Source: Candidatus Methanoperedens sp. (lineage in GTDB: Archaea > Halobacteriota > Methanosarcinia > Methanosarcinales > Methanoperedenaceae). From it: a stretch of DNA of 32,000 nt. Location of the stretch: positions 1 through 32,000 of the forward strand of contig JBGQBI010000005.1 in assembly GCA_041494705.1 (NCBI GenBank). The letters run 5' to 3'. A program made the translations under genes and the position numbers. The notes below the pieces were generated by a model that worked only from the letters and a program-made list of their open reading frames with translations, had not been told where the DNA came from and did no database searches. The number at the start of each line of letters is the position of its first letter. The stretch's first letter is position 1. Positions 5,824-24,867 of this stretch are shown here, piece after piece.

Positions 5824-5828
5824 ATTAA

Positions 5829-6329: not shown

Positions 6330-6358
6330 CTTTGTGAAAACGCCAGTTTAAACAGCGC

Positions 6359-6793
6359 TCAAAGTTTTCCGATATCTTCATTCCATAGCAGAGGATGGTT
6401 CCGTATGAACCCCCTCATCAATTGCTTGCATTCATCAATGTTCAAATCCACGACCAGAACGCCATGCGATTCCATAAATTCCCTGGCGCCTGCGAAGGTC
6501 TCGGATTCTCCCACGATAACTTTCTTAATTCCGAACTGGACAATCGCCCCGGCGCAAAGATAGCAGGGCATCAATGTGGAATAAAGAATAGTCCCGCTGT
6601 ATCTGCCGATTCTTCCGGCATTACGGAGGCAATCAATTTCCGCATGCATTATCGGGTCATTATCCTGAACGCGCCTGTTATGCCCTCTCCCTACAATCTT
6701 CCCATCCTTCACAAGGATAGAACCGATTGGAATTCCGCCCTCACGTAATCCCTTTTTGGCTTCTTCAATAGCTGCTTCAATGTAGACATCCAT
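6359..6793 (-). CDS. Cytosine deaminase of the yeast Fcy1 type (CMP/dCMP-deaminase zinc-binding fold)
   Basis: It has the zinc motifs HAE (MHAEIDC) and PCxxC (MPCYLCAGA). Overall it resembles Fcy1 (GGIPIGS...GRGHN...TLY.TL.PC..C.GAI...GI...V.GE), including the C-terminal W.EDIG. Confidence 0.7.
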   Translation of the reverse strand: MDVYIEAAIEEAKKGLREGGIPIGSILVKDGKIVGRGHNRRVQDNDPIMHAEIDCLRNAGRIGRYSGTILYSTLMPCYLCAGAIVQFGIKKVIVGESETFAGAREFMESHGVLVVDLNIDECKQLMRGFIRNHPLLWNEDIGKL

Positions 6794-6821
6794 AACTGCT
6801 TCTCTTCGATATTTGCCAAAG

Positions 6822-7079
6822 TTATCGCTTGAATGCTAATTTATACACCGCAAATGTGAGTATCAGATAGCCAAGCATTCTGATTATGAAAACACTTTCC
6901 AGTGTTCTTCCAAGACCGAGAAGTGTAATAATATACGAGATACCAAATAACAAGAAGGCCATACTAACATACAAAGGCACCTTATCCTGGCTTTTCTTAT
7001 AACTCCAATAACCCACGACTATTATTACGATATTGAACGTCAAACCTAATGCATTGACAGGGTCCCATATAATTGCCAT
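6822..7079 (-). CDS. Small 3-TM membrane protein (paralog A)
   Basis: 85 aa, three hydrophobic helices. AGGGAGGTGATAAGA sits directly upstream on the minus strand. It is clearly paralogous to 7118..7378 (MA[IF]IWDP...GYW.YKKS.D.VPLYV..AF.LFG.S...TL.G......V.II...YLI..FAVYK.AFKR). Confidence 0.7.
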   Translation of the reverse strand: MAIIWDPVNALGLTFNIVIIVVGYWSYKKSQDKVPLYVSMAFLLFGISYIITLLGLGRTLESVFIIRMLGYLILTFAVYKLAFKR

Positions 7080-7117
7080 TTCTTATCACCTCCCTCTGAT
7101 TTATTTATTGTCCCTAT

Positions 7118-7378
7118 CTATCGCTTAAATGCTATTTTATACACAGCAAATATAACTATCAGATAGGCAAGCGTCCTGATTATTATTAACACACTTACTA
7201 AACTTTGCGTAAAGCCGAAAAGTGTTGCAAGATGCGAGACGCCAAAGAGCCCGAAGGCTATACCGACATAAAGAGGCACGTTATCGCTGCTCTTTTTATA
7301 GCCCCAATAGCCCAGGACCAGTATTATGACGCTGAGCACCAGATTTACCGCGGTTATCGGATCCCATATAAATGCCAT
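7118..7378 (-). CDS. Small 3-TM membrane protein (paralog B)
   Basis: 86 aa with AAGGAGGTGATGAG upstream. It is a tandem paralog of 6822..7079. Confidence 0.7.
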   Translation of the reverse strand: MAFIWDPITAVNLVLSVIILVLGYWGYKKSSDNVPLYVGIAFGLFGVSHLATLFGFTQSLVSVLIIIRTLAYLIVIFAVYKIAFKR

Positions 7379-7393
7379 TTCTCATCACCTCCT

Positions 7394-7984
7394 TTAATTC
7401 CAATAATTCCTGACATATAATCCCGATTTTTTAATGTGGGGCGTAATGTATCGCAGCAGCAACGGGGTAATCACAATTGTTACTATTATATTGGGGATAA
7501 GCCAGCCCGCAAATATTCCAGGCGCATTATTCCATGAGATAATCCCGCCAAGGGCAAGCGTACTTGCACCCCAGCCAGCCCCGGCAATATTATTTAACAC
7601 CACGCCAAAAACCAGGAATATTAAAAAGTCCCTTTTTGTTGTAAGACCTGCATCAGCACCTGATATCCTGAAAGCTACCAGTGGTATCAAAACCTGCCAG
7701 AGATCAGCCAATGACCAATAGGCATTGACGCCGGGTTGCAGACCTGTGCTCATCCCGGCTCCTATAAAACATCCAATATATGCTGCAATTGCTCCCCACA
7801 TCCCGAACCATAGCGAAAAGGCAATCATAAATGCAACTGCAAAGTATAATCCGGAAACTCCCGGGGCAATCTGCCAGGTAATTACGGCATAACGTGACAA
7901 AAGTGAGTTTATTATAGTAATTATTATTAAAATTATCAGATAAGTATATAATGACTTTTGTTTCTGATTACCCCCAATATTCAT
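7394..7984 (-). CDS. Polytopic membrane protein, possibly an ECF-transporter S-component-like substrate-capture protein
   Basis: It has 5-6 hydrophobic segments rich in G/A/W (GMWGAIAAYIGCFIGAG, NNIAGAGWGAS). I used ATG 7984 rather than the track GTG 7993. The function call rests only on a loose resemblance to the ECF S / vitamin-uptake fold. Confidence 0.5.
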   Translation of the reverse strand: MNIGGNQKQKSLYTYLIILIIITIINSLLSRYAVITWQIAPGVSGLYFAVAFMIAFSLWFGMWGAIAAYIGCFIGAGMSTGLQPGVNAYWSLADLWQVLIPLVAFRISGADAGLTTKRDFLIFLVFGVVLNNIAGAGWGASTLALGGIISWNNAPGIFAGWLIPNIIVTIVITPLLLRYITPHIKKSGLYVRNYWN

Positions 7985-8207
7985 TCTTACCACTCCACAT
8001 TATATGGGATTCCACATAAAACTCATCCCTTGACATCCCAATTTTAATATTATTGTTTATGGTTAATAAGACTTTGTTTTATGTTTTACTAATATACCCG
8101 ATTGTGCGGGAAAGCGAAGTTGAATTACCTTAATCAGGCCTTTAATGCCTTCTGCTTTACCAGATAAAATCGAAAGAGTTAATTATTCAAAAATTACCTT
8201 GCGCGCC

Positions 8208-8795
8208 ATGAGGAATTTCAAGGTGGATGAGTATGCGGTTTCGCCTGTTGTCGGCGTGATACTGATGGTGGGAATGACTGTGATTATGGTTTCAGCCGTG
8301 GCTGTGTCTGTATTTGCATTCTCGATTCCTGAGAGCGCGCCGCATGCTAAGATTGTGGTGGTGGAGGCGAGGGGAGATATGGATGATGATCTGCATGAGA
8401 ATAAAATAGTGCTAAAACATAAAGGTGGGGATGCCTTAAATGAGAACAATACTAAAATTATCATCACAGGAAAAGGATGTGCATATACAGGGAATATGTC
8501 GTCATGTCTCCTAAAAGATATGCGAGCCACTTATGGAGATTTAACCGGAGAGAATTATTATCATAACGGAACTGATTTCACTTTAAAACAAATAGTAAGT
8601 GGCACTTCATGGGATGCTGGGGAACAAATAGAACTTTATGGACGAGATGGAGTAGATTTAGATTATAGCGATACGCGCAATACTGTCGATAGTAAATGGA
8701 AAATAGATGCAGGCTCTACAGTTTCAGTGACAATAATAGACACCATTACAAATCAAGTAATAGCAACCTCAAGGCTTACTGTAAAACACCCATAA
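8208..8795 (+). CDS. Archaeal type IV pilin-like protein (DUF1628 class-III signal peptide N-terminus)
   Basis: MRNFKVDEYAVSPVVGVILMVGMTVIMVSAVAVSVFAF matches the archaeal prepilin N-terminal pattern (charged leader, AVSPV.GVILMV hydrophobic helix). I prefer ATG 8208 to the track start at 8145. Confidence 0.7.
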   Translation: MRNFKVDEYAVSPVVGVILMVGMTVIMVSAVAVSVFAFSIPESAPHAKIVVVEARGDMDDDLHENKIVLKHKGGDALNENNTKIIITGKGCAYTGNMSSCLLKDMRATYGDLTGENYYHNGTDFTLKQIVSGTSWDAGEQIELYGRDGVDLDYSDTRNTVDSKWKIDAGSTVSVTIIDTITNQVIATSRLTVKHP

Positions 8796-8801
8796 ACCTG
8801 T

Positions 8802-8930
8802 TCAAACCCTCGCCGTATCCTCACTCCCGCACTGAGGGCACGGTATCGGGATGAAGTTCGGGTCTGCTTCGAATTCGAAGCTGCAAACCATGCATCTGAA
8901 GAATACGGCAGACTGGTTTAACTCTTCCAT
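8802..8930 (-). CDS. Zinc-ribbon miniprotein (42 aa, CxxC...CxxC)
   Basis: This ORF is not in the track. Translation is MEELNQSAVFFRCMVCSFEFEADPNFIPIPCPQCGSEDTARV. It starts 7 nt after the upstream aminopeptidase stop on the same strand. Two CxxC knuckles are spaced 14 aa apart. Confidence 0.5.
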   Translation of the reverse strand: MEELNQSAVFFRCMVCSFEFEADPNFIPIPCPQCGSEDTARV

Positions 8931-8936
8931 AATATA

Positions 8937-9872
8937 TTAATCGTTATAACTTAATATAAATCTTTCGTTATCCACAAAAAGTAGAGGCTTGGTGATAATC
9001 CCGTCAAGATGAATCCCGGCTATCACATCCCCGCCAAAAGTGCTGTTATCCCCGAGAGCTATATGCACCGTGCCTCCAACTTTCTCATCCTCAAGGACAT
9101 TCCCGATAAGCCGCGCTTCCGGGTTGATTCCTATACCGAATTCAGCGATGTTGCGCGCTTTCTCTCCCACTTTATCAAGAATAGTTTTCAATTTCTCAGC
9201 GTGTTTGCCCTTGATACCAGTCACATACCTGTTCCTGACAGTGAACTCAAGGGTTGAATCAAGAAGCCCGAATCCACTCATGGAACCGTCAACCACGAAA
9301 ACGCCGTTTGCATCCTTTGGCGCAATATACAACTCTCCTGCTGGAAGATTGGTGCTGCGCCCTTTTTCATGGCAGAGCCCCGTATCCGTCATCCATTTAC
9401 ATCCTTCAAGGTCAAATGTAATATCCGTGCCTGAATCCGTAACAACTCTTACTTTCCGGGTTTTCTCAAGCCGACTGTACAATCCAATAGCGATTTCATT
9501 GACCTTAGTATAATCCGCGGTCATCCCGCCTGAATTCATCATTTTCTCTGTGATTCCAGGCATGGAAGCAATCCGCGCACCTTTTTTGCAGGCATTTATT
9601 TTTGCCTGTGTGTGGGTTAGTGAAAAAGTAGTCGGGGCGACCACAACATCTGCATTCTTCATTGCTTCAGCTATCACAGGAGGAAGCTCTTCCCCGTGGC
9701 GCGTTCTTGGAAGCACGGTCATAATCATTACCTCGCATCCAAGGTTTTTGGCAGCTTCGAATAAACTCCTGCCTATGGATATTGGAGTGGAGGTATCCAC
9801 TACGATAAGAACGCTTTCCCCGCGTTTTACTCCCATGCATTCCATTACCTTGCGTGCGCCTTGAGTTGTCAT
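8937..9872 (-). CDS. M29-family (AmpS / aminopeptidase T-like) aminopeptidase
   Basis: Motifs NLPAGELY, VDGS and EDEKVGGTVHIALGDN match M29 signatures. I use ATG 9872 (MTTQGARKV...), because the track's 50-aa N-terminal extension runs through the 3' end of the upstream leuC/hacA gene. Confidence 0.7.
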   Translation of the reverse strand: MTTQGARKVMECMGVKRGESVLIVVDTSTPISIGRSLFEAAKNLGCEVMIMTVLPRTRHGEELPPVIAEAMKNADVVVAPTTFSLTHTQAKINACKKGARIASMPGITEKMMNSGGMTADYTKVNEIAIGLYSRLEKTRKVRVVTDSGTDITFDLEGCKWMTDTGLCHEKGRSTNLPAGELYIAPKDANGVFVVDGSMSGFGLLDSTLEFTVRNRYVTGIKGKHAEKLKTILDKVGEKARNIAEFGIGINPEARLIGNVLEDEKVGGTVHIALGDNSTFGGDVIAGIHLDGIITKPLLFVDNERFILSYND

Positions 9873-9873
9873 A

Positions 9874-11142
9874 TTAAACTTTTCTCGGGTCTTTAATTTC
9901 GCCGTACAGCGCGCTTGCAGCCGCAGTAGCAGGAGATGACAGGTACACAAAAGCATCCGGGCTTCCCTGCCTTCCTTTGAAATTGCGGTTTGAGGTCGAG
10001 AGCCCGACTTCTCCTTTGCCAAGGAGCCCGAAGGACCCGCCCATACACGGTCCGCAGCATGGCGATTCCACGATTGCCCCGGCTTCCATGAACTGCTCGA
10101 CGTATCCTGCGCGAAGGACTTTCATATATTCTGTATGCGATGCAGGAATTACCAGGAGACGCACACCTTTAGCCACTTTTTCGCCGTTCATTATCTTAGC
10201 TACTATTTCAATATCCTCAAACCGCCCGTTGGTGCATGAGCCCACGAACACCTGGTCTATCTTTGTTCCTTCGACCTCTTCAACGGATTTCACGTTATCC
10301 ACGTTGTGCGGGCACGCTACCTGTGGCGGGAGATCGCTTATATCGTATTGTTTAATCTCGGCGAACTCTGCGTCTTCATCGCTCTTCCACTTAGGGTCAA
10401 GTTTGAAACCGGGTATCCTTTCTTTCAGGTATTTCTCAGTTGTTTTATCAGCCTCTACGATACCTGCTTTCCCGCCCATCTCGATAGCCATGTTGCAGAT
10501 GCTCATCCTTCCTGAAATATCCATGTTTCTGACTGTGGAGCCGCAGAATTCCGCTGTCCTGTATCTTGCTCCTTCCACTCCGACATCGCCTATGAGGTGG
10601 AGGATGACATCCTTGGGATAAACGCATCTTGGCAGCTTTCCTTCAACTTCAAACTTCATGGTTTCCGGCACCCGGAACCACAACTTTCCTGTGGCAAAAA
10701 CGAATGCCATATCAGTGCTGCCTATGCCTGTCGAGAAGGCGCCAAGTGCTCCGTAGGCGCATGTGTGGGAGTCAGAGCCGACAATGAGGTCGCCGGGTCT
10801 TACATGCCCTTTTTCCGGCATCACCTGGTGACACACGCCTTCAAAAACATCGTAATTCAGGATGCCCTGCTCCTTTGCGAACTGGCGCAGGAAAATATGG
10901 TTTGCCGCTGCATTTAACGAGTCGGCTGGCACCTGGTGGTCAAAAAGAATAACAATCTTGCTCGGATCCCAAACCTTCTGCTTTTTCTTGCCTTTTATTA
11001 TTTCCCTAAAACCCTCAACAGCAAGCGGACCCGTGATATCATGGGTCATGGCGCAATCTATATTCGCGAGGACGAAATCTCCCGCTTTTACTTTTTTGCC
11101 GCATGCTTTGCTGAAAATCTTTTCCGAGATAGTTTGTGCCAT
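9874..11142 (-). CDS. Aconitase-family dehydratase large subunit (3-isopropylmalate/citramalate isomerase LeuC or homoaconitase HacA)
   Basis: 422 aa. Motifs include [11 protein letters not shown], [29 protein letters not shown] and [13 protein letters not shown] cannot separate the LeuC and HacA paralogs by eye. No small subunit is adjacent. Confidence 0.9.
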
Positions 11143-11278
11143 GAAGCCTTATTGATAGCGTGGAATTATTTAATCTTTTGGAGATTAGAGCGCTAATAGA
11201 AAAGAGCGCATGTAGAAAAACGGATGATAACATTTTTAAGCAATCTGCCCTATCATTCCAGTTAAATATGGTGGTTCA

Positions 11279-15426: not shown

Positions 15427-16059
15427 TTAGCCTATACTGTAATTATTTTCATCTTTTTTTATTATATCTTTTCGTTCCATTCTATCCAGGTATTCCTCAA
15501 GCACATATTCAGGAATGCCAAGCTGCATGGATAACACACGCTGGGTCATGGGGCCTTTAAGGAGCGCATAGAGTATTTCAGCCTCAATGTGATCTTCTGC
15601 GACGTCCTCGATGGCGTTCATGCACCGTCCCATAGCCTCGGTGATTCCTGACTGGACTTGCTGGTACTCTTCCATCAGGGAGCGGCGGTGTTCCAGAAGC
15701 CCTTCCACCTCGCTATAAACGGATTTTAACCCTGAGACGGCTTCCTTTGATTCCAGATGGCTACTCGGCGCGTCAATGATGGCGACTGTAGTGGTCTCCA
15801 CTTCAAAGGAGTAAGGCGACACAAATACTTCAAGACGGAGGTTGTCTGTTATATGGAAGTATTTGCGCCGCTGGTCGTCTACGTTGCCTTCAATCAGACC
15901 CGCTTTCTCAAGGAGCAGAAGGTGTCCGAGAACTGCTTTGGCGCCTACGTCCAGCCTTTCTGCAATTTCGCTCATGTAGCAGGGGCGGCTTGCCAGAAGA
16001 TGCAGTATTTTCCTTCGGTTTTCGTTCCCGAGTATGTCCAACAGTTGTGCCGATTCCAT
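15427..16059 (-). CDS. ArsR/TrmB-type winged-helix transcription regulator, HSR1/Phr-like heat-shock regulator candidate
   Basis: The N-terminal wHTH is LDILGNENRRKILHLLASRPCYMSEIAERLDVGAKAVLGHLLLLEKAGLIE. A coiled middle region follows, then a second HTH-like C-terminus. It is the first gene of the regulator-hsp20-cdc48 set. A CTAAC-N5-GTTAG palindrome lies in its promoter. Confidence 0.7.
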   Translation of the reverse strand: MESAQLLDILGNENRRKILHLLASRPCYMSEIAERLDVGAKAVLGHLLLLEKAGLIEGNVDDQRRKYFHITDNLRLEVFVSPYSFEVETTTVAIIDAPSSHLESKEAVSGLKSVYSEVEGLLEHRRSLMEEYQQVQSGITEAMGRCMNAIEDVAEDHIEAEILYALLKGPMTQRVLSMQLGIPEYVLEEYLDRMERKDIIKKDENNYSIG

Positions 16060-16077
16060 ATTTATGTTTCACCCCGA

Positions 16078-16127
16078 GTTAGTGACTTGAGGTTACTAAC
16101 CTTAAGTTAGTGATGATGGTATATATA
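16078..16127 (-). promoter_or_regulatory. Heat-shock operon promoter: TATA-like box plus HSR1-type operator
   Basis: TATATATA lies at 16120-16127, 61-68 nt upstream of ATG 16059. The palindrome TTACTAAC-cttaa-GTTAGTGA spans 16093-16113 and contains CTAAC-N5-GTTAG at 16096-16110. A third half-site GTTAGTGA is at 16078-16085. With usual archaeal TATA-TSS spacing, the palindrome falls where the TSS is expected. Confidence 0.5.
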
Positions 16128-16133
16128 GGTTAC

Positions 16134-16207
16134 TCCATGATTAGCTTTGCACCTAAAGTACCATTTTTAAGCGACTTTAGGTGCAGACAATGGACTTTAG
16201 GTGCAGA
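16134..16207. repeat. Left repeat node: 9-bp flanking duplication, 17-bp TIR and two subterminal 15-mers
   Basis: TCCATGATT is at 16134-16142 and AGCTTTGCACCTAAAGT at 16143-16159. GACTTTAGGTGCAGA occurs at 16173-16187 and 16193-16207, a 20-bp period. TGCACCTAAAGT (16148-16159) and ACTTTAGGTGCA (16174-16185) form a perfect 12-bp inverted repeat. Confidence 0.9.
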
Positions 16208-16278
16208 TGTTTTTGATAGTAGATGGATAGAAGTATCATATTATAGCCTTGTGCAATTAATATGGCGTTGGTGAAAAT

Positions 16279-16830
16279 ATGAAAGATTACACAAAAAGTT
16301 GCGATGGATGCATTCGCTCTCAAGGAAAGGACACGGTTCAGGGAGGAATCGTTGAATTAAAAGGCGATTGGATACTTAATCATATTAGTGGCGAAGGAGG
16401 ATTTCTTGGATGGGTGATATTGCAACCTCGTTATCATCGGATGGGGTTAGCAGACCTTGAATCTGACGAATTGAGCTTCTTGGGTGAAAACATTCAGAAG
16501 ATTGATATAGCCTTGGAAAGCTATTGGAATGAATATTTCGAAAATGATTCACTTGAGCGAGTATATGTGACCTACTTTTTTGAATCTGCTTATGATAAAC
16601 CAAATCCAGAAAAATTTCACTTACATATTCATCTAATTCCTCGCCCTATAAGTTTTGACAAATTACTGAGAGAATGTGTGCCTAATTCGAATAATAAATC
16701 ATATATCAATGCATGGAAAATCTACACACTTCCAAAATACAAGAATTTTCCTCCTGAGTACGTCAAAACTAAAGAGAATGTGACAAATCTCATGGAATAT
16801 CTTAGAGATATTCTGCAATGCGTTGATTAG
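16279..16830 (+). CDS. HIT (histidine triad) superfamily hydrolase-like protein
   Basis: The histidine triad is HLHIHLIPR. An N-terminal CDGC motif and GWVILQPRYH (a nucleotide-binding-loop-like stretch) are also present. The last 29 nt overlap the convergent transposase 3' end. Confidence 0.6.
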   Translation: MKDYTKSCDGCIRSQGKDTVQGGIVELKGDWILNHISGEGGFLGWVILQPRYHRMGLADLESDELSFLGENIQKIDIALESYWNEYFENDSLERVYVTYFFESAYDKPNPEKFHLHIHLIPRPISFDKLLRECVPNSNNKSYINAWKIYTLPKYKNFPPEYVKTKENVTNLMEYLRDILQCVD

Positions 16831-18037
16831 GTTTAAGAATTGAAAGGTTTTGAGTGCAGAAGTCGGGCTTTATGCCCAACTCATGCATCTCATGTATCAG
16901 GACTATGATGTTGTGCGCTATCAGCTTGCAGAGTAACTCATTTTTCTGAGCTATGAAATTCTTGGATTTCAGTTTATCCCCAAGCTTCGCTTTTATCATG
17001 TTAAAGGTACTTTCTACATTGCTTCTCTTGTGGTAGTGATTCCAAAAATCCTCTTGGTTAAGCTGGAAATACAGAAACATCTTCCACCATAGCGCACTGC
17101 CTCTACTCTTGCCTGTTGCATTGCTCTTGAATGGGATATATGCCGTTCCCCCAACCTGTGCAACCGCTTCAAGGTTATCCCTGCTTGAATATGCCTTGTC
17201 GGCGGTCATTTCCTTGATGTTAAAACCGTTCTGTGCCGTTGCCATGACAAGCGGTGCGAACTGCGGGCTGTCTGCACTATCCCCATCTGTTATTTCTGCG
17301 CTGGCTATCACATTGGTTTTTACACCTACGGAGATATGAGCCTTAAGCCATTTATGCTGCCTCTTAAGGTCATATTTCTGATTTGCATACTCATTATAGC
17401 TTGTAGTCCTGAATCCTGAGCTATCAATGGCAAATGAATCTTCAACAACTGCAAGGGGCTGGGCAGAAATACCTACCAGCTTGTGCAACATAGGAGTTAT
17501 GTCCTCTTTATTGAACATCTTACTTACGGTATTGAAATGCGGGGCATGTTTTATCTGTTCCCTCTCAACCGCATTGCCGAATAATGATGCAGCCCTTCGG
17601 CTCGAAAGCTGAGAATAGACTTTCTGGACTGAACAGAATATCGTTTCCCTCATGCTCAAGCGTGGTCTCCCGAAATCCTGCGGAGGTTCTTCTACACTTT
17701 CTACTAAATCCTTTAGCAGTTCATCAAACAACTTTATTTCGCTTGTTTGAGCCTTGTTATAGACTTCCCATGCCTGTTTATAGGTTAAGCGTACTTTTGT
17801 TTCTTCTGTGCCGATGGGTGTTTCTTTTAAAATTTGCAAGTAGTAGCGTAAAGCGTGGGCGTGCTTGCATGTGGTTTTGTGGTATTCCGCATCTGGGCAG
17901 TTGCATGTAAATTTCTCATCTACGAAATACACCTTATCGCTTGATTGCGATGGCACTAACCAGATATGTCTTTTCCCATCATATCTTATTTTCTTAGTCT
18001 GTACGATTTCTTTTCCTTTTATTTCTCTTGTATCCAT
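16802..18037 (-). CDS. DDE transposase (IS4/IS5 superfamily, DDE_Tnp_1 type) with N-terminal SWIM zinc finger
   Basis: The SWIM finger CxCxnCxH is FTCNCPDAEYHKTTCKHAH. DDE candidates are AIDSSGF, TADKAYSS and SNVESTF, with the signature Y-2-R-3-E-6-K (YHKRSNVESTFNMIKAK). I use ATG 18037, preceded by AAGGAGGA, rather than the track start at 18100. Confidence 0.85.
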   Translation of the reverse strand: MDTREIKGKEIVQTKKIRYDGKRHIWLVPSQSSDKVYFVDEKFTCNCPDAEYHKTTCKHAHALRYYLQILKETPIGTEETKVRLTYKQAWEVYNKAQTSEIKLFDELLKDLVESVEEPPQDFGRPRLSMRETIFCSVQKVYSQLSSRRAASLFGNAVEREQIKHAPHFNTVSKMFNKEDITPMLHKLVGISAQPLAVVEDSFAIDSSGFRTTSYNEYANQKYDLKRQHKWLKAHISVGVKTNVIASAEITDGDSADSPQFAPLVMATAQNGFNIKEMTADKAYSSRDNLEAVAQVGGTAYIPFKSNATGKSRGSALWWKMFLYFQLNQEDFWNHYHKRSNVESTFNMIKAKLGDKLKSKNFIAQKNELLCKLIAHNIIVLIHEMHELGIKPDFCTQNLSILKPNQRIAEYL

Positions 18038-18070
18038 GTTTGTTTCCTCCTTAGTGGATGATATTCTAAT

Positions 18071-18190
18071 CTGTCGTACGATAGATTGTTTTAAAAGCAT
18101 ATAAACTTTACTATAAATCGTACGACAGGGTATCTTTATATATTAAATCGTACAATTTAATAATGTAAATGCCCGAAAAAACCGTACGAA
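18071..18190. promoter_or_regulatory. Divergent promoter region with repeated TCGTACGA palindromes
   Basis: CTGTCGTACGAT (18071-18082) and ATCGTACGACAG (18117-18128) form a perfect 12-bp inverted repeat. TAAATCGTAC is repeated at 18114-18123 and 18144-18153. CGTACGA recurs at 18184-18190. TTTATATA (18135-18142) lies ~27 nt upstream of ATG 18169, which implies a near-leaderless mRNA. Confidence 0.4.
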
Positions 18191-18465
18191 AGAAAAAAGA
18201 GAAGCCTGTGCCTTTGGATTATTCCAAACTACCGAATGAATTAGAGGACATAGTTGCCGAGCCACTATCAGATTTAGCGGAAAAAGAAGCGAACATTAAC
18301 TATGACGGTAAACAATACTTGGTTCGGTTTCCGAACGATATAGCCAATGCTATCGGTATTAAGAAAGGAGACAAAATTAAATTCAGAGTTGTACTGCCAT
18401 CTCCCAAAACAAATCAGCAAGAGGAGATAGATATTAAATATGTAAGGAGTGAAAAGCGTGAATAG
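18169..18465 (+). CDS. AbrB/SpoVT (swapped-hairpin)-like small DNA-binding protein
   Basis: The C-terminal YLVRFPNDIANAIGIKKGDKIKFRV matches the AbrB/MazE-type motif (x-IP-x-x-I-x-x-x-x-G-I-K-x-G-D-x-hydrophobic). It is the first gene of the coupled operon. Confidence 0.5.
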   Translation: MPEKTVRKKKEKPVPLDYSKLPNELEDIVAEPLSDLAEKEANINYDGKQYLVRFPNDIANAIGIKKGDKIKFRVVLPSPKTNQQEEIDIKYVRSEKRE

Positions 18466-18661
18466 CAAATTCACATCAAACGAAAAGCGAATAGTCAATC
18501 TCCTATACGTAGCTCGGAGACCTTTGACAACAAAACAGGTTTCAGAAAAATTGGGCATAGCTTGGCAGACCGCAAAAGATAACCTCACGAGCTTACGTAA
18601 AAATGGTTATGTAAACATGGAGGAGAGAGGCAATAGGACTAATTGGTGGCTGAGGATATGA
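18458..18661 (+). CDS. Small winged-helix (MarR/ArsR-like) DNA-binding protein
   Basis: NEKRIVNLLYVARRPLTTKQVSEKLGIAWQTAKDNLTSLRKNGYV is a classic wHTH. GTG 18458 is preceded by AAGGAGTGA (the track start is GTG 18449). The gene overlaps the upstream stop. Confidence 0.6.
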   Translation: MNSKFTSNEKRIVNLLYVARRPLTTKQVSEKLGIAWQTAKDNLTSLRKNGYVNMEERGNRTNWWLRI

Positions 18662-18768
18662 AAATGGAGGACTGTATATTGGGAAAAAGGGAGACGGATA
18701 GGATAATTACTTTCACTCCGCTTTCATTAGTGATTTATAAAGATAAAAATACAGATAAGGAGGGCTAA
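18658..18768 (+). CDS. Possible 36-aa bridging micro-ORF
   Basis: Its ATG overlaps the wHTH stop (ATGA at 18658-18661). Its TAA at 18766-18768 ends 1 nt before the methylase ATG at 18770. Translation is MKMEDCILGKRETDRIITFTPLSLVIYKDKNTDKEG. The only support is this exact fit between neighbours. Confidence 0.25.
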   Translation: MKMEDCILGKRETDRIITFTPLSLVIYKDKNTDKEG

Positions 18769-18769
18769 A

Positions 18770-20575
18770 ATGAATGAGCGAATCACAGAGGATATTGTTC
18801 GTAACCATTTCAAGAGCGATGGGTGTTATGACAGAATACTTCTTGAAGAACAAAAGTCCAGCATCCCCCGTGTGGATAAGTTGTTAAAAAGTGCATCAAA
18901 GTCTGGAATGGGTGGAGGCAAACCTGAGTTTTTAATCACATTCAGAAATGAAATAATGGATTTTATAATCGTTGTAGAATGTAAGGCAAGTAGAACAAAA
19001 CACGAGAGCAAAACACGAGATAATTACGGAGAATATGCCGTGGACGGCGCAGTGTTGTATTCGTCGTTCCTTTCGCAAGAATATGATGTGCTTTCAATTG
19101 CTGTAAGCGGGGAAACAAAAAATAATTTAAAAGTATCACATTTCCTACAACTGAAAGGGGAAACTGAGGCGAAACCCATATTCGGTGACGAGTTGCTGTC
19201 CGTTAAAAACTATCTGAATGGTTACGTCACCAGCGAGCGTAAATGTATTCAACAGTATCAAGAACTTTTGAAATATTCTAAACCTTTAAACGACTATCTC
19301 CACTCCATAAAAGTAAAAGAATCGCAGCGGAGCCTTCTTATTAGCGGTATATTAATTGCGTTAGAAGATGAATCGTTTGAGATAAGTTATAAAAAAATAA
19401 AAGATACCCAGCAATTAGCGAATCGGTTGGTCACTACCATAAAAGAACAACTTGGAAATACCTTAAAGCAGGAAAAAGCTGAGAATCTGGCTGTAGCATA
19501 CAGTTTTATCAAAACACATACAGATATGTCGCAGAAAGAGGGGATATTGAGAGGTTTAATTGATAATGTAAACAATAAAATTAAGCCCTTTATTAAGACC
19601 TATCCTGGTCATGATGTTTTAGGTCAGTTTTACATTGAGTTTTTGAAATATGCTAATAACGATAAGGGTTTGGGAATCGTCCTGACGCCACCCCATATAA
19701 CAGAGCTTTTTTCAGATATAGCCATGGTAAACAAGAACAGTATCTTACTCGATAATTGTGCTGGTACTGCTGGTTTTTTGATAAGCGGAATGAAAAAAAT
19801 GATGGCGGATGCAAAAGGAGATGAGGAAAAAATAAAAGACATAAAGAAAAACCAGCTTATAGGAATCGAGTATCAGGACGATATTTTTGCATTAGCTTGT
19901 TCGAATATGTATATTCATGGGGATGGTAGGAGCAACATCGAGCATGGAAGTTGCTTCGATGAAGATATAATAAAGAGGGTCAAGACCAAGCACCCCAATA
20001 TCGGGTTTTTGAATCCGCCATATAAAACCGAAAAAACCGACCCTTATGAATTATCGTTCATATTAAACAATCTTGCCATGCTTGAAAAAGGCGGTACTTG
20101 TGTGGCTATAGTTCCGATGAGTTGTGTCATGGCACAGTCAGGGGAGGAACTCGATTTAAAGAAACAACTCTTAGAACATCATACATTAGAGGCAGTTTTC
20201 TCAATGCCTGATGAATTATTTATTAATTCAAACGTAGGTACAGTCACTTGTGTTGTGGTCGTAAAAGCGCATCAGCCTCATCCGACCAACTTTGAAACCT
20301 ATTTTGGATACTGCAAAGACGATGGTTTTATTAAACGGAAGCCAATGGGGAGAGGCGATTATCTCAATAAATGGGACGGTATTAAGAAAGAGTGGGTATA
20401 TAATTTTAGAAACCGCAAAGAGATTGCAGGGCATAGCGTCAAAAGATGCGTGACTGCCGAAGATGAGTGGTGTGCTGAGGCTTATATGGAGACCGACTAC
20501 TCAAACATAACCGAGGAGGATTTTGTTAAAACGGTCAAGGAATTTGTGATATTCCAAGAGATGAATTTGAAATGA
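18770..20575 (+). CDS. Fused PD-(D/E)XK endonuclease plus gamma-class N6-adenine DNA methyltransferase (BcgI-A-like type IIB/IIG restriction-modification subunit)
   Basis: The N-terminal nuclease motif is PE(53)F...D(64)FIIVVE(70)CK(72). The AdoMet motif is LLDNCAGTAGFL. The catalytic motif IV is NPPY (GFLNPPYKTE). GQFYIEFL...VLTPPHI resembles the HsdM/N6_Mtase block. There is no helicase or translocase domain. Confidence 0.7.
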   Translation: MNERITEDIVRNHFKSDGCYDRILLEEQKSSIPRVDKLLKSASKSGMGGGKPEFLITFRNEIMDFIIVVECKASRTKHESKTRDNYGEYAVDGAVLYSSFLSQEYDVLSIAVSGETKNNLKVSHFLQLKGETEAKPIFGDELLSVKNYLNGYVTSERKCIQQYQELLKYSKPLNDYLHSIKVKESQRSLLISGILIALEDESFEISYKKIKDTQQLANRLVTTIKEQLGNTLKQEKAENLAVAYSFIKTHTDMSQKEGILRGLIDNVNNKIKPFIKTYPGHDVLGQFYIEFLKYANNDKGLGIVLTPPHITELFSDIAMVNKNSILLDNCAGTAGFLISGMKKMMADAKGDEEKIKDIKKNQLIGIEYQDDIFALACSNMYIHGDGRSNIEHGSCFDEDIIKRVKTKHPNIGFLNPPYKTEKTDPYELSFILNNLAMLEKGGTCVAIVPMSCVMAQSGEELDLKKQLLEHHTLEAVFSMPDELFINSNVGTVTCVVVVKAHQPHPTNFETYFGYCKDDGFIKRKPMGRGDYLNKWDGIKKEWVYNFRNRKEIAGHSVKRCVTAEDEWCAEAYMETDYSNITEEDFVKTVKEFVIFQEMNLK

Positions 20576-21537
20576 CCACTCTAAAAAAAGTCTCCGAGTT
20601 ATTCACTATTAAATATGGTGTGAGTTTAGCATTAAGTGATTTGGAAGAATGCAAAAAATCAGACAAAGACTCTATAAACTTCGTTTCGAGAACTGATAAA
20701 AATAATGGTATTTCTGCTTTTGTAAAAAAAATAAAAGGCATTACTCCCAATGAAGCTAATACGATTTCTGTTGCAGTAAGTGGCTCTGTTCTTGCTTCGT
20801 TTTATCAACCAGAGCCATACTACAGTGGCTTTCATTTGTACGTATTAACTCCAATTCAGAAAATGACATCAGTTGAGATGATTTATTATTCTATATGTAT
20901 AAGAAGTAACCGATACCGTTATAATTTTGGGAGACAAGCCAATAAAACCCTGAAAGATATACTCATTCCATCAGAGATGCCAAAGGAGTTTTCAAACATT
21001 TCAATGGATAAAATTACATCAGTTACAAACAAAAAACTAATTAATAATAAAACTTTTAATTTAAATATTTCTCAATGGAAACCTTTTAGATATGATGAAT
21101 TATTTAAAATCGAAAGGGGACGTGGAGGGAGGAAAAAGGATTTGAAAAAAAATGGAAAAATCCCATTTGTAACATCAATTGATAAAAATAACGGTTGGTT
21201 GGGGATGATAGATTCACTTCCTTACCATAAAGGAAATGTAATTAGTGTAAATCGCAACGGGAGCGTTGGAGAAGCATATTATCAACACATTCCTTTTTGT
21301 TCAACTGAAGATGTTCATATTTTTAACCCAAAATTTGAATTAAATCAATACATTGCAATGTTTCTAATATCACTGATAAAAAAAGAAAAATATCGTTATA
21401 ATTATGGGAGAAAATGGGGAATGGAAAGAATGAATAAAACAATTATAAGATTGCCAGCGGACAAGAATGGAAAACCTGATTGGCAATTCATGGAAAATTA
21501 CATTAAATCATTACCTTATAGTTCTTCCATGACATAA
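20572..21537 (+). CDS. Specificity (HsdS/BcgI-B-like) subunit with two internally duplicated target-recognition halves
   Basis: The ATG overlaps the methylase stop (ATGA). The two halves share blocks: LFTIKYG/LFKIERG, FVSRTDKNNGISAFV/FVTSIDKNNGWLGMI, ISVAVSGSV/ISVNRNGSV and YRYNFGRQANKTL..ILIP/YRYNYGRKWGMERMNKTIIRLP. Confidence 0.65.
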   Translation: MTTLKKVSELFTIKYGVSLALSDLEECKKSDKDSINFVSRTDKNNGISAFVKKIKGITPNEANTISVAVSGSVLASFYQPEPYYSGFHLYVLTPIQKMTSVEMIYYSICIRSNRYRYNFGRQANKTLKDILIPSEMPKEFSNISMDKITSVTNKKLINNKTFNLNISQWKPFRYDELFKIERGRGGRKKDLKKNGKIPFVTSIDKNNGWLGMIDSLPYHKGNVISVNRNGSVGEAYYQHIPFCSTEDVHIFNPKFELNQYIAMFLISLIKKEKYRYNYGRKWGMERMNKTIIRLPADKNGKPDWQFMENYIKSLPYSSSMT

Positions 21538-21550
21538 TTTCCTCAAACTG

Positions 21551-21631
21551 ACTTTAGGTGCAACTTCACTACTTTAGGTGCAAGTGTGACTTTGGGTGCA
21601 AAGCTTCCATGATTAGCTTTGCACCTAAAGT
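21551..21631. repeat. Right repeat node: three phased 13-mers, right TIR, 9-bp duplication and the next left TIR
   Basis: ACTTTAGGTGCAA starts at 21551 and 21571, and ACTTTGGGTGCAA at 21589, giving spacings of 20 and 18 bp. The right TIR is 21589-21605, TCCATGATT is 21606-21614, and AGCTTTGCACCTAAAGT is 21615-21631. Positions 21589-21631 can fold as a 17-bp stem (one G-T pair) with a 9-nt loop. Confidence 0.9.
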
Positions 21632-21730
21632 CGGAAAAGGTGGCATATTCAAACCGAGATAACTTTGGCGCTTGACCGATATACGCTTGCCTGAGCAGGT
21701 TAGGTTTTATTATAAAATTAATGAACTATT

Positions 21731-22198
21731 CTATTCCCCCGAATTAATAAAATCGTAACCGATTAACGAAATGACAAGCACAAAAGTTACGGGTACAAAA
21801 TACATTCCAACAGTAAAACCCGACAAAAATTCTACAATTATCTGAGTAATTAAGAGAGTAATTGCTATAACCCCTGAATGTTTCTTAAATGATAATAATC
21901 CCCCAATGACCAGCCAAAAAATTGAACCATTAGCAAGTAATAGTAGGACTATTTGTTCAAGATGCAGCGGTTCTTCTACTATTATTGCCCCTTGTTCCAT
22001 AAGAGCACGCAGTTCTACATAGTGCTCAATTTGCCCAATAACAAATAATACTCCCAGAATGAGGCTGTATAATCCTATCAACCTAAACAGAAAAACTTTT
22101 GTGTTCATATTCCACCAGATATAATCGTCATTTTCATCTTTGTCGCCATTTCGATACATTAACTGTCCCGATTGGCTGACAAGGAACATATTGTCCAT
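21731..22198 (-). CDS. Hypothetical 4-TM membrane protein
   Basis: The 155-aa ORF has four long hydrophobic segments. The start is uncertain (alternatives at 22159 and 22108), because the track start overlaps the upstream ORF by 65 nt. Confidence 0.5.
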   Translation of the reverse strand: MDNMFLVSQSGQLMYRNGDKDENDDYIWWNMNTKVFLFRLIGLYSLILGVLFVIGQIEHYVELRALMEQGAIIVEEPLHLEQIVLLLLANGSIFWLVIGGLLSFKKHSGVIAITLLITQIIVEFLSGFTVGMYFVPVTFVLVISLIGYDFINSGE

Positions 22199-22577
22199 TT
22201 ACCCCACAAGAATTATCTGTATTGTATGTTACATATCCTATGACTTCGATATGCTGACCTTGATTTGGTGCTCTGGTCAAGCATTCCTCCTGAAGCGCAA
22301 GCGAGCCTTCACAAATCTGTTGACTGCCATCTGGTAATCTTGTACTTATTAGGAGGTGGTAAGTGTTTCCATCTTCTGCATCTAACCAATACTGCGGATT
22401 ACACGTTGTATTAAGAGGGCATGGAATAGTGATGTCTTCAATTGTACCGTTCATATCAAAGTTTGGCTTTTCAGTTAGGCTGCTTTGTTGAGAGTACCAA
22501 TAAAGGGAGAGAATTATCACAATTCCTACAAATACAACTTTTATGCCTTTTTTCATAACTATTCCTGTTCCTCCCAT
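22134..22577 (-). CDS. Hypothetical signal-anchored, cysteine-rich extracytoplasmic protein
   Basis: An N-terminal hydrophobic anchor (KKGIKVVFVGIVIILSLYWY) is followed by a ~110-aa domain with 7 Cys (CPLNTTC, QQICEG, EECL, NSCG, VPC). An alternative start is ATG 22556. Confidence 0.5.
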   Translation of the reverse strand: MGGTGIVMKKGIKVVFVGIVIILSLYWYSQQSSLTEKPNFDMNGTIEDITIPCPLNTTCNPQYWLDAEDGNTYHLLISTRLPDGSQQICEGSLALQEECLTRAPNQGQHIEVIGYVTYNTDNSCGVNGQYVPCQPIGTVNVSKWRQR

Positions 22578-22638
22578 TTTATTTTGATTTTGGGTGGTTC
22601 TTTATTGTTTGATTCACTCATTTCATGCTCCATTAATG

Positions 22639-22699
22639 CGGCTTTGCACCTAAAGTATATCGTCTGCATCGCTCAAAAACGGTACTTTGGGTGCAAAGC
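22639..22699. repeat. 61-bp 'empty' TIR pair (mini-element or hairpin)
   Basis: GGCTTTGCACCTAAAGT (22639-22655) and ACTTTGGGTGCAAAGCT (22683-22699) are separated by a 27-bp spacer. The arms match the left and right TIRs of the 16.1-21.6 kb element. Confidence 0.85.
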
Positions 22700-22732
22700 T
22701 CCCAGAATTTTCTTTGAATGGCAATTCACAGT

Positions 22733-23485
22733 CTATTCAATTATATATGTGACCTGCACAGAAAGCGACACCTGAGATTCTCCCGGCTGGATTGGTGCAG
22801 CTTTCTCAGTAATACCCAGAGCCACAGGTTGCGGAATTCCCCCTTCGCTGATAGAAGTTGAGCTTACGCCTGTTATCTTTACCCCCAGGTTCTCTGCAAG
22901 CTTATCCGCTTTTCCTCTTGCATCCTTTACAGCCCCTGCAAGAAGGTCATCGTGTATTTGTTTCTGTTTTTCTTCGGATACCATGAAGGATATGCCGCCT
23001 ACTTGGTTAGCTCCGGCAGCTACGGACTTGTCCAGGATGTCGCTTAAATTGCCAACCATCCGGGTGGTTACAACTACGTTGTTGGAAGCGGAATAACCCG
23101 TAATTGTCGGCGCGCCCCCGTCCTTGGGATAGCTGTAAACCGGCTGGATGGAGAAAACGGTAGTCCGGATTTCCTTGTCTGTGAGCCCCTGGTTTTTAAG
23201 CGCGCTAATAACGGCATTCATAGAGACAGCGTTCTTATCCGATGTTTCCCTGGCAGAAGACGCCTGCGTTAATACGCCAAGACTTATGGAGACGGTATCC
23301 GGTACAACAAATGCTGATGCCGACCCGGAAACGTAAAGCAGCTTTTGCCCCGGCGTGGTGACATTGAATAATTTTACTCCAGCCGTGCCGGCAACGCTGT
23401 ATAACCCGGCGGCTATTACAACAATAGCTATCGAAAGGATAACTATTATCACGTACAATTTATTATCCGAAGTTTCTTGCGGCAT
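22733..23485 (-). CDS. SIMPL / DUF541 family protein (membrane-anchored)
   Basis: An N-terminal TM anchor is followed by a typical DUF541 layout (GSASAFVVPDTVSISLGV, TTVFSIQPVY, GYSASNNVVVT, AVKDARGKADKLAENLG, ISLSVQVTY). Its GC is core-like, unlike both flanking segments. Confidence 0.8.
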   Translation of the reverse strand: MPQETSDNKLYVIIVILSIAIVVIAAGLYSVAGTAGVKLFNVTTPGQKLLYVSGSASAFVVPDTVSISLGVLTQASSARETSDKNAVSMNAVISALKNQGLTDKEIRTTVFSIQPVYSYPKDGGAPTITGYSASNNVVVTTRMVGNLSDILDKSVAAGANQVGGISFMVSEEKQKQIHDDLLAGAVKDARGKADKLAENLGVKITGVSSTSISEGGIPQPVALGITEKAAPIQPGESQVSLSVQVTYIIE

Positions 23486-23600
23486 AAAACCCCTAGTTTA
23501 TAAAATGACTTTTTCAGGTATATATTTTCTGTATAACGCCTATTGGATTTTCTACAGCCATGCTGGTAAACCGCAGACTTTTCAGAACCTTCAAGCGAGA

Positions 23601-23625
23601 CGTTTCAATTCGTGTTGGTAGTTAT
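23601..23625. repeat. Left arm of the 25-bp inverted repeat bounding the AT-rich nuclease cassette
   Basis: The arm is CGTTTCAATTCGTGTTGGTAGTTAT. Positions 23607-23625 are a perfect reverse complement of 24843-24861 (19 bp). Over 25 bp, 23 positions match. Confidence 0.9.
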
Positions 23626-23712
23626 ATAACATTTATTTTTGATTCATTTCAATTTATCAATACAAATTGAAACTGATTTTATCATCAGTTAAATCACCAC
23701 CTTTACTTTTAT

Positions 23713-24780
23713 TTAATCTTCTGCTAAAAGCTTAGAAATTTGTCTATTGGATGACAACGGATATAACTCGAGTTCGATGCAGAATTCTTCAATAAGATTT
23801 GCTATTTCTTCATGATTATTTTCGTACATTATCATGTTCTCTTCTATATATGTTATTGGCTCCCCATGAATGTATTTTACATCAAGATTTTTCTGTTTAC
23901 ATAATTTTATAAACTTAGCCTCTAATGGTTTCCATTCATCATTACTTACATCATTTGTTAATACTACACAAAGAGGTTTATTGTATTTTTTCCAGAAATC
24001 AAACCAAATACCAAAAAATAATATCCATCGCTCATTTGAGTTCCTTATGTAGAATCCATATTCGTGATGCGAATCCTTATAATAACGTCCAGTTGTATCT
24101 TCTTGTTTTATGTTGTAACCTCTCTCGTATAATTCTTCTTTGACATGATACATAATGTCCATCGGTTTGATAATTATTTCTGCAATTTCTTTGTTAAACA
24201 AATTTTTTATATCATTATAATTGATATTAGTTGTTTCTATAATGCCAAAAAAATTATTAAGGAATTTATAATACTCATTAAACAATGTGCTTGTGTCAAC
24301 TAATTCTTCTTTGTTAAAGGATTCAATCAATTGATTCCAATAAATGGTCGGCGTAAATATATCAATTCCCGAACGTTTTTTAAAACTTGATACTTGACTG
24401 TTGTAATCATTTTCATAGATATAATCCTTAGGTGCCATCAAGACCAAACCCCTAAATGGTTTCTTACTTTCTTTGGCAAGATATTCAAGATATCCAAGTG
24501 GTTGATTGTTAGTTAAGGTGGTATTTTTTATTTTGATTTCAAAGATTATTTCGACTTCATCATTTTTTATAACTAAATCGAAATTCCCATATTCGCCATT
24601 ATTATCATTAATTTTAAGATGTTCATATTTAACTCTTGACTTATGGAATCCACTGGTTTTTAGCAAGTTCAATAACAATTTTCTTAAAATTTTAAATCTT
24701 AAAAAATTATGAAGTAATTTCGTGAATGCTTTTTCATCATCTCCAACCATATCCGAGAAGACGTTATCTGAATTTACCAT
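23713..24780 (-). CDS. PD-(D/E)XK nuclease superfamily protein with an unrecognised C-terminal half
   Basis: The N-terminal half has the layout common in PD-(D/E)XK families. It reads NVFSDMVGDDEKAFTKLLHNFL, then GNFDLVIKNDEVEIIFEIKIK (D...E-x-K), then NQPLGYLEYL. The gene is very AT-rich, clearly the lowest GC in the window by eye. Confidence 0.55.
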   Translation of the reverse strand: MVNSDNVFSDMVGDDEKAFTKLLHNFLRFKILRKLLLNLLKTSGFHKSRVKYEHLKINDNNGEYGNFDLVIKNDEVEIIFEIKIKNTTLTNNQPLGYLEYLAKESKKPFRGLVLMAPKDYIYENDYNSQVSSFKKRSGIDIFTPTIYWNQLIESFNKEELVDTSTLFNEYYKFLNNFFGIIETTNINYNDIKNLFNKEIAEIIIKPMDIMYHVKEELYERGYNIKQEDTTGRYYKDSHHEYGFYIRNSNERWILFFGIWFDFWKKYNKPLCVVLTNDVSNDEWKPLEAKFIKLCKQKNLDVKYIHGEPITYIEENMIMYENNHEEIANLIEEFCIELELYPLSSNRQISKLLAED

Positions 24781-24842
24781 ATAGACGATTGAGTCTGCAT
24801 TGAATATAAATATATTTTACTATTTAGGTGTTGCACATTAAC

Positions 24843-24867
24843 ATAACTACCAACACGAATTATAACG
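24843..24867. repeat. Right arm of the 25-bp inverted repeat bounding the AT-rich nuclease cassette
   Basis: The arm is ATAACTACCAACACGAATTATAACG. See 23601-23625. Confidence 0.9.

Follow-up and report, generated by a model that had tools for sequence, protein, structure and literature searches.

Restriction-modification (R-M) systems are mobile, and the vehicle that moves them is seldom clear, least of all in archaea; the archaeal lineage Methanoperedens is noted for its unusual mobile DNA. How, then, did a complete R-M operon come to lie beside a heat-shock operon in the chromosome of a Candidatus Methanoperedens species? We addressed this question in a stretch of 32,000 nucleotides (contig JBGQBI010000005.1, positions 1 to 32,000; referred to as the window), in which an earlier note, made from the letters alone, had described a unit transposon carrying a complete R-M module. 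The block concerned, element A, spans positions 16143-21605 (5,463 bp) and holds at least seven open reading frames (ORFs). It has one transposase, one pair of terminal inverted repeats (TIRs), and one target duplication, and the empty site exists in two sister species, in agreement with that description. It is very probable that A is an autonomous unit transposon, i.e., a transporter insertion sequence (IS), that it belongs to an IS903-like, archaeal branch of the IS5 family, and that it inserted beside an older nonautonomous element, B. We established its boundaries and duplications, the empty site, its family membership, the identity of its cargo, and the variability of that cargo among relatives.

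Insertion site and boundaries of elements A and B

A genome-collection scan with the adjacent ArsR-like protein retrieved 42 orthologous ArsR-HSP20-CDC48 loci. Two of them, L010 and L011 (L numbers are our handles for compared loci), represent the two closest Methanoperedens species, with ArsR-like proteins 96% and 95% identical to that of the window. In both, the ArsR-like gene has SIMPL as its immediate upstream neighbor, and the spacer of 107 bp contains no transposase, R-M genes, small ORFs, or TIRs; it is not the TIRs alone that these loci lack but the genes as well. The spacer was rebuilt by joining the window flanks 16050-16142 and 22701-22755. On L010, the matches of these flanks share positions 9911-9920, and about 9 bp of the empty-site spacer (CCCATGATT in L011 and CCCCTGATT in L010) are present at both window flanks. 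A blastn comparison of the whole window with the same loci breaks at 16149 and at 22701-22707. This empty site indicates that 16143-22700 (6,558 bp) is inserted DNA, which, judging from its sequence, comprises two elements of one family, A (16143-21605) and B (21615-22700). About 6 bp separate the block from the TATA box of the heat-shock operon ArsR-HSP20-CDC48, upstream of which it lies.

The left terminus of A, AGCTTTGCACCTAAAGT (16143-16159), and the right terminus, ACTTTGGGTGCAAAGCT (21589-21605), are complementary at 16 of 17 positions, and the 9-mer TCCATGATT flanks them without a mismatch at 16134-16142 and 21606-21614, both as previously described. The left copy is homologous to the single-copy CCCATGATT of L011 and CCCCTGATT of L010, and the right copy, according to sequence identity and the empty-site comparison, is at the same time the left duplication of B. 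The stretch repeated exactly in direct orientation measures 26 bp (16134-16159 is identical to 21606-21631; 0 matches in dinucleotide shuffles) instead of 9 bp, because a further terminal 17-mer lies at 21615-21631. Such a repeat around a 5.46-kb block that is AT-rich relative to its flanks would also be seen in a genomic island formed by site-specific recombination, with the 26-bp repeats as attL and attR; indeed, the GC content of the interior is about 0.29 to 0.45 versus 0.40 to 0.56 in the flanking heat-shock operon, a difference already pointed out in the earlier note. But the 26 bp resolve into a 9-bp local target and a 17-bp terminus of the neighboring element and are not a fixed repeat, neither the same 26-mer at many loci nor an integrase-dependent excision product with a single 26-bp junction was seen, and relatives with the same ends have unrelated 9-bp flanks and no long direct repeat. 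Since, in addition, a domain scan of the window proteins revealed no integrase or recombinase gene inside the block, an island is scarcely credible.

Besides the terminal 17-mers, phased subterminal 12-mers had been proposed at both ends of A, and these were borne out by a count of the 12-mer ACTTTAGGTGCA. With up to two mismatches, the window contains 9 copies versus 2.4 expected, a number reached in none of 100 shuffles, and all of them fall into three clusters, 16148-16205, 21551-21631, and 22645-22695. No degenerate inner ends were detected within A, where 12-mers with up to three mismatches occur at chance level (4 versus 4.7 expected). The transposase-proximal end, IR-T (16143-16205), consists of the terminal 17-mer, a 14-nucleotide spacer containing T5, and two 12-mers in opposite orientation 20 bp apart; it is 88 to 95% identical to relatives at the DNA level, and the same layout was found in L004, L005, L006, L052, L075, L079, L080, and L023. 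The cargo-side end, IR-C (21551-21605), has three 12-mers in one orientation with starts 20 and 18 bp apart, i.e., about two helical turns, the last of which is the terminal 17-mer; its DNA identity to L075, L006, and L005 is 80 to 91%. In several lineages the innermost 12-mer of IR-T is preceded by (A/G)GCTT, so that IR-T alone resembles a two-terminus mini-element of 61 to 68 bp. Examples are window 22640-22700, L080 5561-5628, L079 10144-10211, and L005 1-80, the last lying just inside the cargo-side end of its element.

Element B (21615-22700; 1,086 bp) lies in the opposite orientation and is bounded by family termini, the terminal 17-mer at 21615-21631 and an IR-T end at 22640-22700 with a 7-bp deletion. 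Between them are a 26-nucleotide transposase-gene relic (21642-21667), which agrees with the transposase gene of L005 in 21 of 22 nucleotides and is kept in both known copies of B, and two small membrane or secreted-protein genes on the minus strand (21731-22198 and 22134-22577). Family termini combined with nothing more of a transposase than this relic indicate that B is a nonautonomous derivative. On its right side stands a degenerate third target 9-mer, CCCAGAATT (22701-22709), which matches TCCATGATT at 6 of 9 positions. The second copy of B (L080 5561-6643), in another Methanoperedens genome, is 89.8% identical from terminus to terminus and sits between unrelated host genes with a perfect GTATTCATT duplication on both sides, and a 630-bp relative (L023 4743-5372) has the duplication GGTGAAACG. 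B is absent from L010 and L011. The segment 22640-22700 was also considered as a 61-bp miniature inverted-repeat transposable element and rejected, as the L080 copy shows it to be the IR-T end of B with the 7-bp deletion. Separately, a further Methanoperedens genome has a homologue of the 147-aa gene of B (L081 797-1239), 86% identical in DNA over 443 bp, in whose vicinity family termini are lacking; the cargo of B may stem from this chromosomal gene, or the gene may be a decayed copy.

Could 16143-22700 instead be a single composite transposon that arrived once, by means of its outermost ends, IR-T of A and IR-T of B? The empty site of L010 and L011 lacks both A and B, and the outermost termini are intact and flanked by the related 9-mers TCCATGATT and CCCAGAATT, as such an event would leave them. 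However, the 9-mer inside the block (21606-21614) has the sequence of the left flank and is of local target origin, and a single arrival is disfavored because an incoming element would not contain a 9-mer of the local target. Moreover, the outer pair agrees at 6 of 9 positions, against the perfect pair around A, while B stands alone in L080 with its own duplication and A-type elements also stand alone, as in L075 (5,111 bp). We therefore consider one composite arrival very improbable. Nor is the block a compound transposon with cargo between two complete IS copies, since there is one transposase gene and B has merely the 26-nucleotide relic.

Relatives were sampled by rank and extent of contig and not by content. 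The end architecture of A flanks transposase homologues at 59 to 94% identity (L004, L005, L006, L052, L075, and L079), and the 17-mers and 12-mers stand at the expected ends of such homologues in more than 10 independent loci. Thus, the 17-mers are tied to this transposase family and are not generic hairpins. Indeed, the 12-mer covaries with the transposase lineage, reading TGCTCCTAAAGT in L060, TGCACATTAAAT in L076, and TGCACCAAAAGT in L059. Copies bounded by the repeats and carrying 9-bp duplications of their own, for which the earlier note had suggested a search, were found in L006 (CCCCTGGTG / CCCCTGGTA), L060 (CGTGAAACC), L059 (CAGCTAGGG), and L076 (CCGTATACC), in addition to L023 and L080; L079 has GGTAGCTAG on one side and, as its contig stops after 3 bp (GGT) of the other flank, only GGT can be compared there. 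The nine duplications collected have no clear target consensus. The string GTGAAAC is common to the duplications of L023 4743-5372 and L060 6696-11743, whose flanks are unrelated, which hints at some target preference, although the other seven show no consensus.

In the history that we propose, B would have inserted first, at CCCATGATT, its duplications would then have drifted, and A would have landed in exactly the left 9-bp duplication of B. An insertion of A at that place would account for the perfect TCCATGATT pair, the 26-bp repeat, and the junction of end, 9 bp, and end. The three copies of the target 9-mer (TCCATGATT at 16134, TCCATGATT at 21606, and CCCAGAATT at 22701) fit this order by parsimony, with 3 substitutions versus 4, including a reversal, for the other order. 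Strict sequence specificity does not explain why A reused the target of B, given that the nine duplications lack a clear consensus. The end at 22640-22700 and the 9-mer copy at 22701-22709 had been overlooked previously, and two claims change in their light. That A abuts a copy of its own left TIR is right insofar as the 17-mer is present, but this terminus belongs to the separate element B; and the predicted empty site, GGTTAC-TCCATGATT-AGCTTTGCACCTAAAGTCGG, corresponds to an intermediate with B only, while the ancestral empty site is without both elements.

The transposase and its family

The transposase gene of A (16802-18037, minus strand) encodes a SWIM-DDE protein of 411 aa, recognized by DDE_Tnp_1 and IS5_2 matches and by its invariant residues. 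A mechanically delimited ORF extends to 18100; we place the start at M22 (position 18037) because of the conserved leader CATCCAC..AAGGAGGAAACAAAC-ATGGAT. Consistently, exact-protein look-ups returned no record of the 432-aa form, and the recorded gene starts at M22. The Pfam match to DDE_Tnp_1 is clear (4.7e-23), and SWIM is matched weakly, below the cut-off (E = 0.0049). Across 24 aligned transposases of the family, C-x-C-x9-C-x-H (C45/C47/C57/H59), the D-D-E triad (D205/D280/E342), and Y-2-R-3-E-6-K (Y335/R338/E342/K349) are all invariant, so that the SWIM finger and the two catalytic signatures reported before are confirmed at the level of the family, even though the single-sequence SWIM match falls short. 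By tblastn, the window has this one transposase gene only.

Assignment to the IS4 family, as the earlier note had it, is not tenable. The best NCBIfam model is transpos_IS5_2 with 139.1 bits, 0.9 bit under its cut-off of 140, and transpos_IS4_1 reaches 38.2 bits against a cut-off of 115; besides, 6,994 homologues were found, and the source databases name homologues "IS5 family transposase." The Y-2-R-3-E-6-K signature and the 9-bp duplication do not discriminate here, because IS903-type IS5 elements also make 9-bp duplications. A tblastn search against plasmids led to bacterial IS903-type elements and ISVa2 at about 25 to 27% protein identity. Two of the bacterial IS903-type elements (L073 and L074) measure 1,052 and 1,054 bp and have GGCTTTGTTGC termini and 9-bp duplications, and GGCTTTG-type termini are shared by the window (AGCTTTGCACC), by L059, L076, and L079 (GGCTTTGCACC), and by L073 and L074. 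In sequence, the transposase resembles the IS903 group and would accordingly belong to the IS5 family, not to IS4.

A is, however, not a plain IS, which would have a length of about 1 kb, a single ORF, and one short inverted repeat at each end. With its 5,463 bp, its three 12-mers per end, and its additional SWIM domain, it is a derived cargo transposon. The internal position of the transposase gene, which had been listed among its peculiarities, holds for A but is not a family trait, as the gene abuts the end of the element in L004, L052, and L075; it is internal in A because a second cargo slot is filled by a HIT-like ORF.

Cargo and its variation among relatives

Compared with its relatives, A appears as a conserved core, the two ends and the transposase gene, with two variable cargo slots. 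Slot 1, divergent from the transposase gene, starts with AbrB-type and winged-helix regulators, followed by a BcgI-like R-M system, and slot 2 holds the HIT-like gene. At the DNA level, A is homologous to its relatives only in IR-C (about 56 bp), in the transposase gene plus leader (16839-18069), and in IR-T (about 64 bp), and the breakpoints are sharp.

The R-M system consists of a fused restriction endonuclease-methyltransferase of 601 aa (18770-20575, plus strand) and a specificity subunit of 321 aa with two target-recognition halves (20572-21537, plus strand; 4-nucleotide overlap with the preceding gene). The former matches the PADLOC model REase_MTase_IIG over its full length (1.6e-164; residues 6-596) and Pfam N6_Mtase (4.4e-27), has HsdM-like matches in the PDB, and contains the motifs NPPY and DNCAGTAGF, all of which suggest a BcgI-like type IIG/IIB enzyme. 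The latter matches Pfam Methylase_S (1.3e-25) and PADLOC Specificity_II (6e-36). Typed in this way, the two proteins are predicted to form a BcgI-like two-gene type IIB/IIG R-M system, and the coupled R-M operon that had been described as cargo is thereby corroborated.

The cargo operon begins with a small DNA-binding protein of AbrB/MazE type (18169-18465, plus strand; 98 aa), which has a weak match to Pfam MazE_antitoxin (E = 0.005). The corresponding place is taken by AbrB-like homologues in L005, L006, and L075 (33 to 39% identity in L005 and L006) and by MazE-like or DUF2080 proteins in L004, L052, and L076; DUF2080 is annotated in Pfam as a "putative transposon-encoded protein." Alignment of the two AbrB-type class profiles by hhalign covered the core motif only, with a probability of 22%. 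Altogether, a small AbrB/MazE/DUF2080-type gene comes first in the divergent operon in seven of the nine elements at 60% or higher transposase identity (the window, L004, L005, L006, L052/L053, L075, and L076), and a small ORF with an AbrB-type core motif is found at this position even in L079, which is without R-M genes. The second gene encodes a winged-helix regulator of 70 aa (18449-18661, plus strand; DUF7342 / HTH_24) with homologues in L005 and L006 (45 to 50% identity) and in L075. A micro-ORF of 36 to 41 aa (18643-18768, plus strand), coupled between the winged-helix and R-M genes, is a called gene in the source assemblies and has no family match; it is not conserved in L075, and its status as a gene is uncertain. 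The transposase gene and the operon diverge from a control region (18038-18168) that contains CGTACGA repeats and a 19-nucleotide palindrome (18071-18089 / 18110-18128), which are putative operators, and the repeat motif in this region changes with the class of AbrB-type regulator.

The gene in slot 2 (16279-16830, plus strand) encodes a protein of 183 aa with an N-terminal CxxC and is convergent with the transposase gene, with an overlap of 29 bp. A single-sequence Pfam search gave only E = 0.31, and phmmer against the PDB gave nothing meaningful. Nevertheless, the prediction of a HIT-like hydrolase is supported: among 67 homologues, many are named Ap4A HIT hydrolase by the Joint Genome Institute, an H-x-H-x-H motif (H114/H116/H118) is invariant in the family, and HIT proteins are the best PDB matches of a 36-sequence profile (3lb5, 3.3e-4). 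The gene is absent from L004, L052, and L075.

What the relatives carry in place of the BcgI-like system differs from one to another, even at high transposase identity. We found an AlwI-type restriction endonuclease with an N6_N4 methyltransferase in L004 (94% transposase identity), a type IIG enzyme of 802 aa with a specificity subunit-like protein in L005 (88%), a type IIG enzyme of 676 aa with a specificity subunit in L075 (85%), decayed HSDR_N_2 and N6_Mtase genes with nested IS genes in L006 (77%), an N6_N4 methyltransferase with a 188-aa protein in L052/L053 (77%), two C5 methyltransferases with a BpuJI-like restriction endonuclease and Vsr in L076 (65%), an MmeI-like enzyme of 954 aa in L060 (63%), and a type IIG enzyme of 725 aa in L077 (61%). 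R-M genes were thus present in all nine sampled elements at 60% or higher identity, the window included, in seven distinct architectures, and the family appears to move R-M systems between archaeal genomes. The L006 member (2264-11223; 8,960 bp) is also peculiar in that its decayed R-M cargo encloses genes of other ISs with HTH_23/HTH_32 and rve domains.

With regard to mechanism, the SWIM-DDE transposase probably recognizes the three 12-bp sites of each end, perhaps through its SWIM region, and the different layouts of IR-T and IR-C would give an asymmetric synaptic complex. A 9-bp staggered cut of the target and insertion of the whole 5,463 bp, possibly by cut-and-paste chemistry, would leave the TCCATGATT duplication. 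The AbrB-type and winged-helix proteins may act at the CGTACGA repeats and the palindrome (18071-18128) to control both divergent promoters, and the R-M system, if active, would defend the host and penalize loss of the element. Cargo might be swapped by recombination in the conserved modules or by side-by-side insertions whose outer ends enclose new DNA; the latter route may be exemplified by A with B at this locus and by the remnant resembling an inner end at L005 1-80.

Several observations weigh against A being a functional, mobile member of such a family. No transposition, excision, or insertion polymorphism was seen, and every assembly with the exact transposase or ArsR-like protein has the filled site, although these look-ups returned the same locus as three copies of probably one dataset; the locus also stands in the metagenome-assembled genome GCA_041489935.1 and on a 2.07-Mb Joint Genome Institute contig. 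Only one copy of A is present in its genome, the matches that assign window proteins to SWIM and AbrB are below the Pfam cut-offs, and the outer duplication of B, at 6 of 9 positions, has decayed further than one would expect if B had inserted after the split from L010 and L011. An exact search of metagenome and genome collections for the predicted B-only junction, TTACTCCATGATTAGCTTTGCACCTAAAGTCGG, gave 0 matches. The link with R-M also weakens below about 60% transposase identity, where L055 has a large methyltransferase only and no recognizable R-M genes were found in L079 (59%), L082 to L084 (55 to 57%), or L059 (41%), and only about a dozen of the roughly 7,000 homologues were viewed in context. 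As a separate observation, L082 to L084 are IMG/VR contigs classed as viral, one of which has the transposase relative near a terminase gene and another near an integrase.

Some of these points, namely the single copy, the filled site in every available assembly, and the missing B-only junction, would suit an immobile relic, with the transposase inactive or domesticated and the R-M operon kept only for host defense. Against this stand the perfect 9-bp duplication, the termini matching at 16 of 17 positions, and the intact 411-aa ORF with all family-invariant catalytic and zinc-finger residues. Furthermore, other samples contain relatives at 85 to 94% identity (L004, L005, and L075) whose contigs break at the ends of the element or close to them, and such breaks are typical of multicopy or polymorphic elements. 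A relic is therefore unlikely, and we retain the view of A as an autonomous unit transposon. A wider proposal, which we advance tentatively and hold to be somewhat short of an even chance, is that A represents a widespread archaeal IS903-like lineage specialized in moving R-M systems. Its core and AbrB-type regulator would be constant, and one slot would almost always hold a different complete R-M system, serving both as a defense and as an addiction module; side-by-side insertion would enclose new cargo, and the lineage would be a main route by which R-M systems pass between Methanoperedens, Methanothrix, Micrarchaeota, and organisms related to them.

The surroundings of the block have features of their own. 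A TATATATAC box and the palindrome CACTAACTTAAGGTTAGTAAC (window 16060-16133) are conserved upstream of ArsR-HSP20-CDC48 in at least 13 Methanoperedens species (L010 to L022), and the palindrome is probably the operator of the heat-shock regulator. A second variable region lies right beside SIMPL (window 23600-24850), and its place is taken by unrelated DNA in L010 (2.3 kb) and L011 (1.3 kb); it includes a very AT-rich gene (GC content of 0.28 to 0.29; 23713-24780, minus strand) for a 355-aa protein with a PD-ExK-like motif and no family match. In L035 (12327-12802) and L042 (8191-8690), the CDC48 orthologue is split near residues 367 to 373 by about 475 to 500 bp with an intein-like look, and in L040 (12604-12692) it breaks at another place, with the two matches overlapping.

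Comparison with known systems

This locus is a clean case of an R-M vehicle, with exact boundaries, an empty site, an intact transposase, and relatives bearing seven R-M architectures. It opens the questions of whether a simple DDE transposon lineage spreads defense in uncultured methane-oxidizing archaea, whether R-M stabilizes the transposon, and how cargo is exchanged at fixed junctions. In addition, the three-site asymmetric ends and the SWIM domain offer a new layout for studying the assembly of IS5/IS903-type transposases. In our literature searches, no account turned up of archaeal IS5/IS903-like elements that form a lineage with interchangeable R-M cargo; ISfinder was outside their scope, and this is absence of evidence only.

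With the IS903 group (IS903-type elements of Klebsiella plasmids and ISVa2 of Vibrio), A shares DDE_Tnp_1, Y-2-R-3-E-6-K, a 9-bp duplication, and (G/A)GCTTTG termini, as measured on L073 and L074. The members of that group are, however, only about 25 to 27% identical at the protein level and are single-gene elements of 1.05 kb with a simple 18-bp inverted repeat and no N-terminal SWIM, whereas A has a SWIM zinc finger, three asymmetric 12-bp sites per end, and 5.5 kb with cargo.

Transporter ISs, or unit transposons, are IS-like elements with passenger genes inside their TIRs, a concept of the ISfinder authors. Like them, A has a single transposase, one TIR pair, one duplication, and passengers unrelated to transposition. 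Unlike them, it carries a whole regulated R-M operon, its slot content differs among close relatives, and a small AbrB-type gene accompanies the transposase.

Tn7-like elements are bacterial and much larger, with a multiprotein TnsABC(D/E) machinery and site-specific targeting. A, in contrast, is an IS5-type element with one transposase and no strict target sequence. The family of A nevertheless resembles the Tn7-like transposons with defense cargo, including R-M, that form part of the account of Benler et al. (2021; PMC8649781), in being a transposon lineage whose cargo is dominated by defense systems.

The bacterial transposon-like R-M units described by Furuta et al. (2010; PMC2853133), among them a type IIG enzyme with a specificity subunit in N. 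gonorrhoeae flanked by 26-bp inverted repeats and an 8-bp duplication, are similar to A in their BcgI-like IIG and specificity-subunit homologues, imperfect inverted repeats, short duplication, and empty site in a related genome. Those units are isolated bacterial cases with the transposase absent or degenerate and an 8-bp duplication, whereas A has an intact transposase and an archaeal host and belongs to a whole family with interchangeable R-M cargo.

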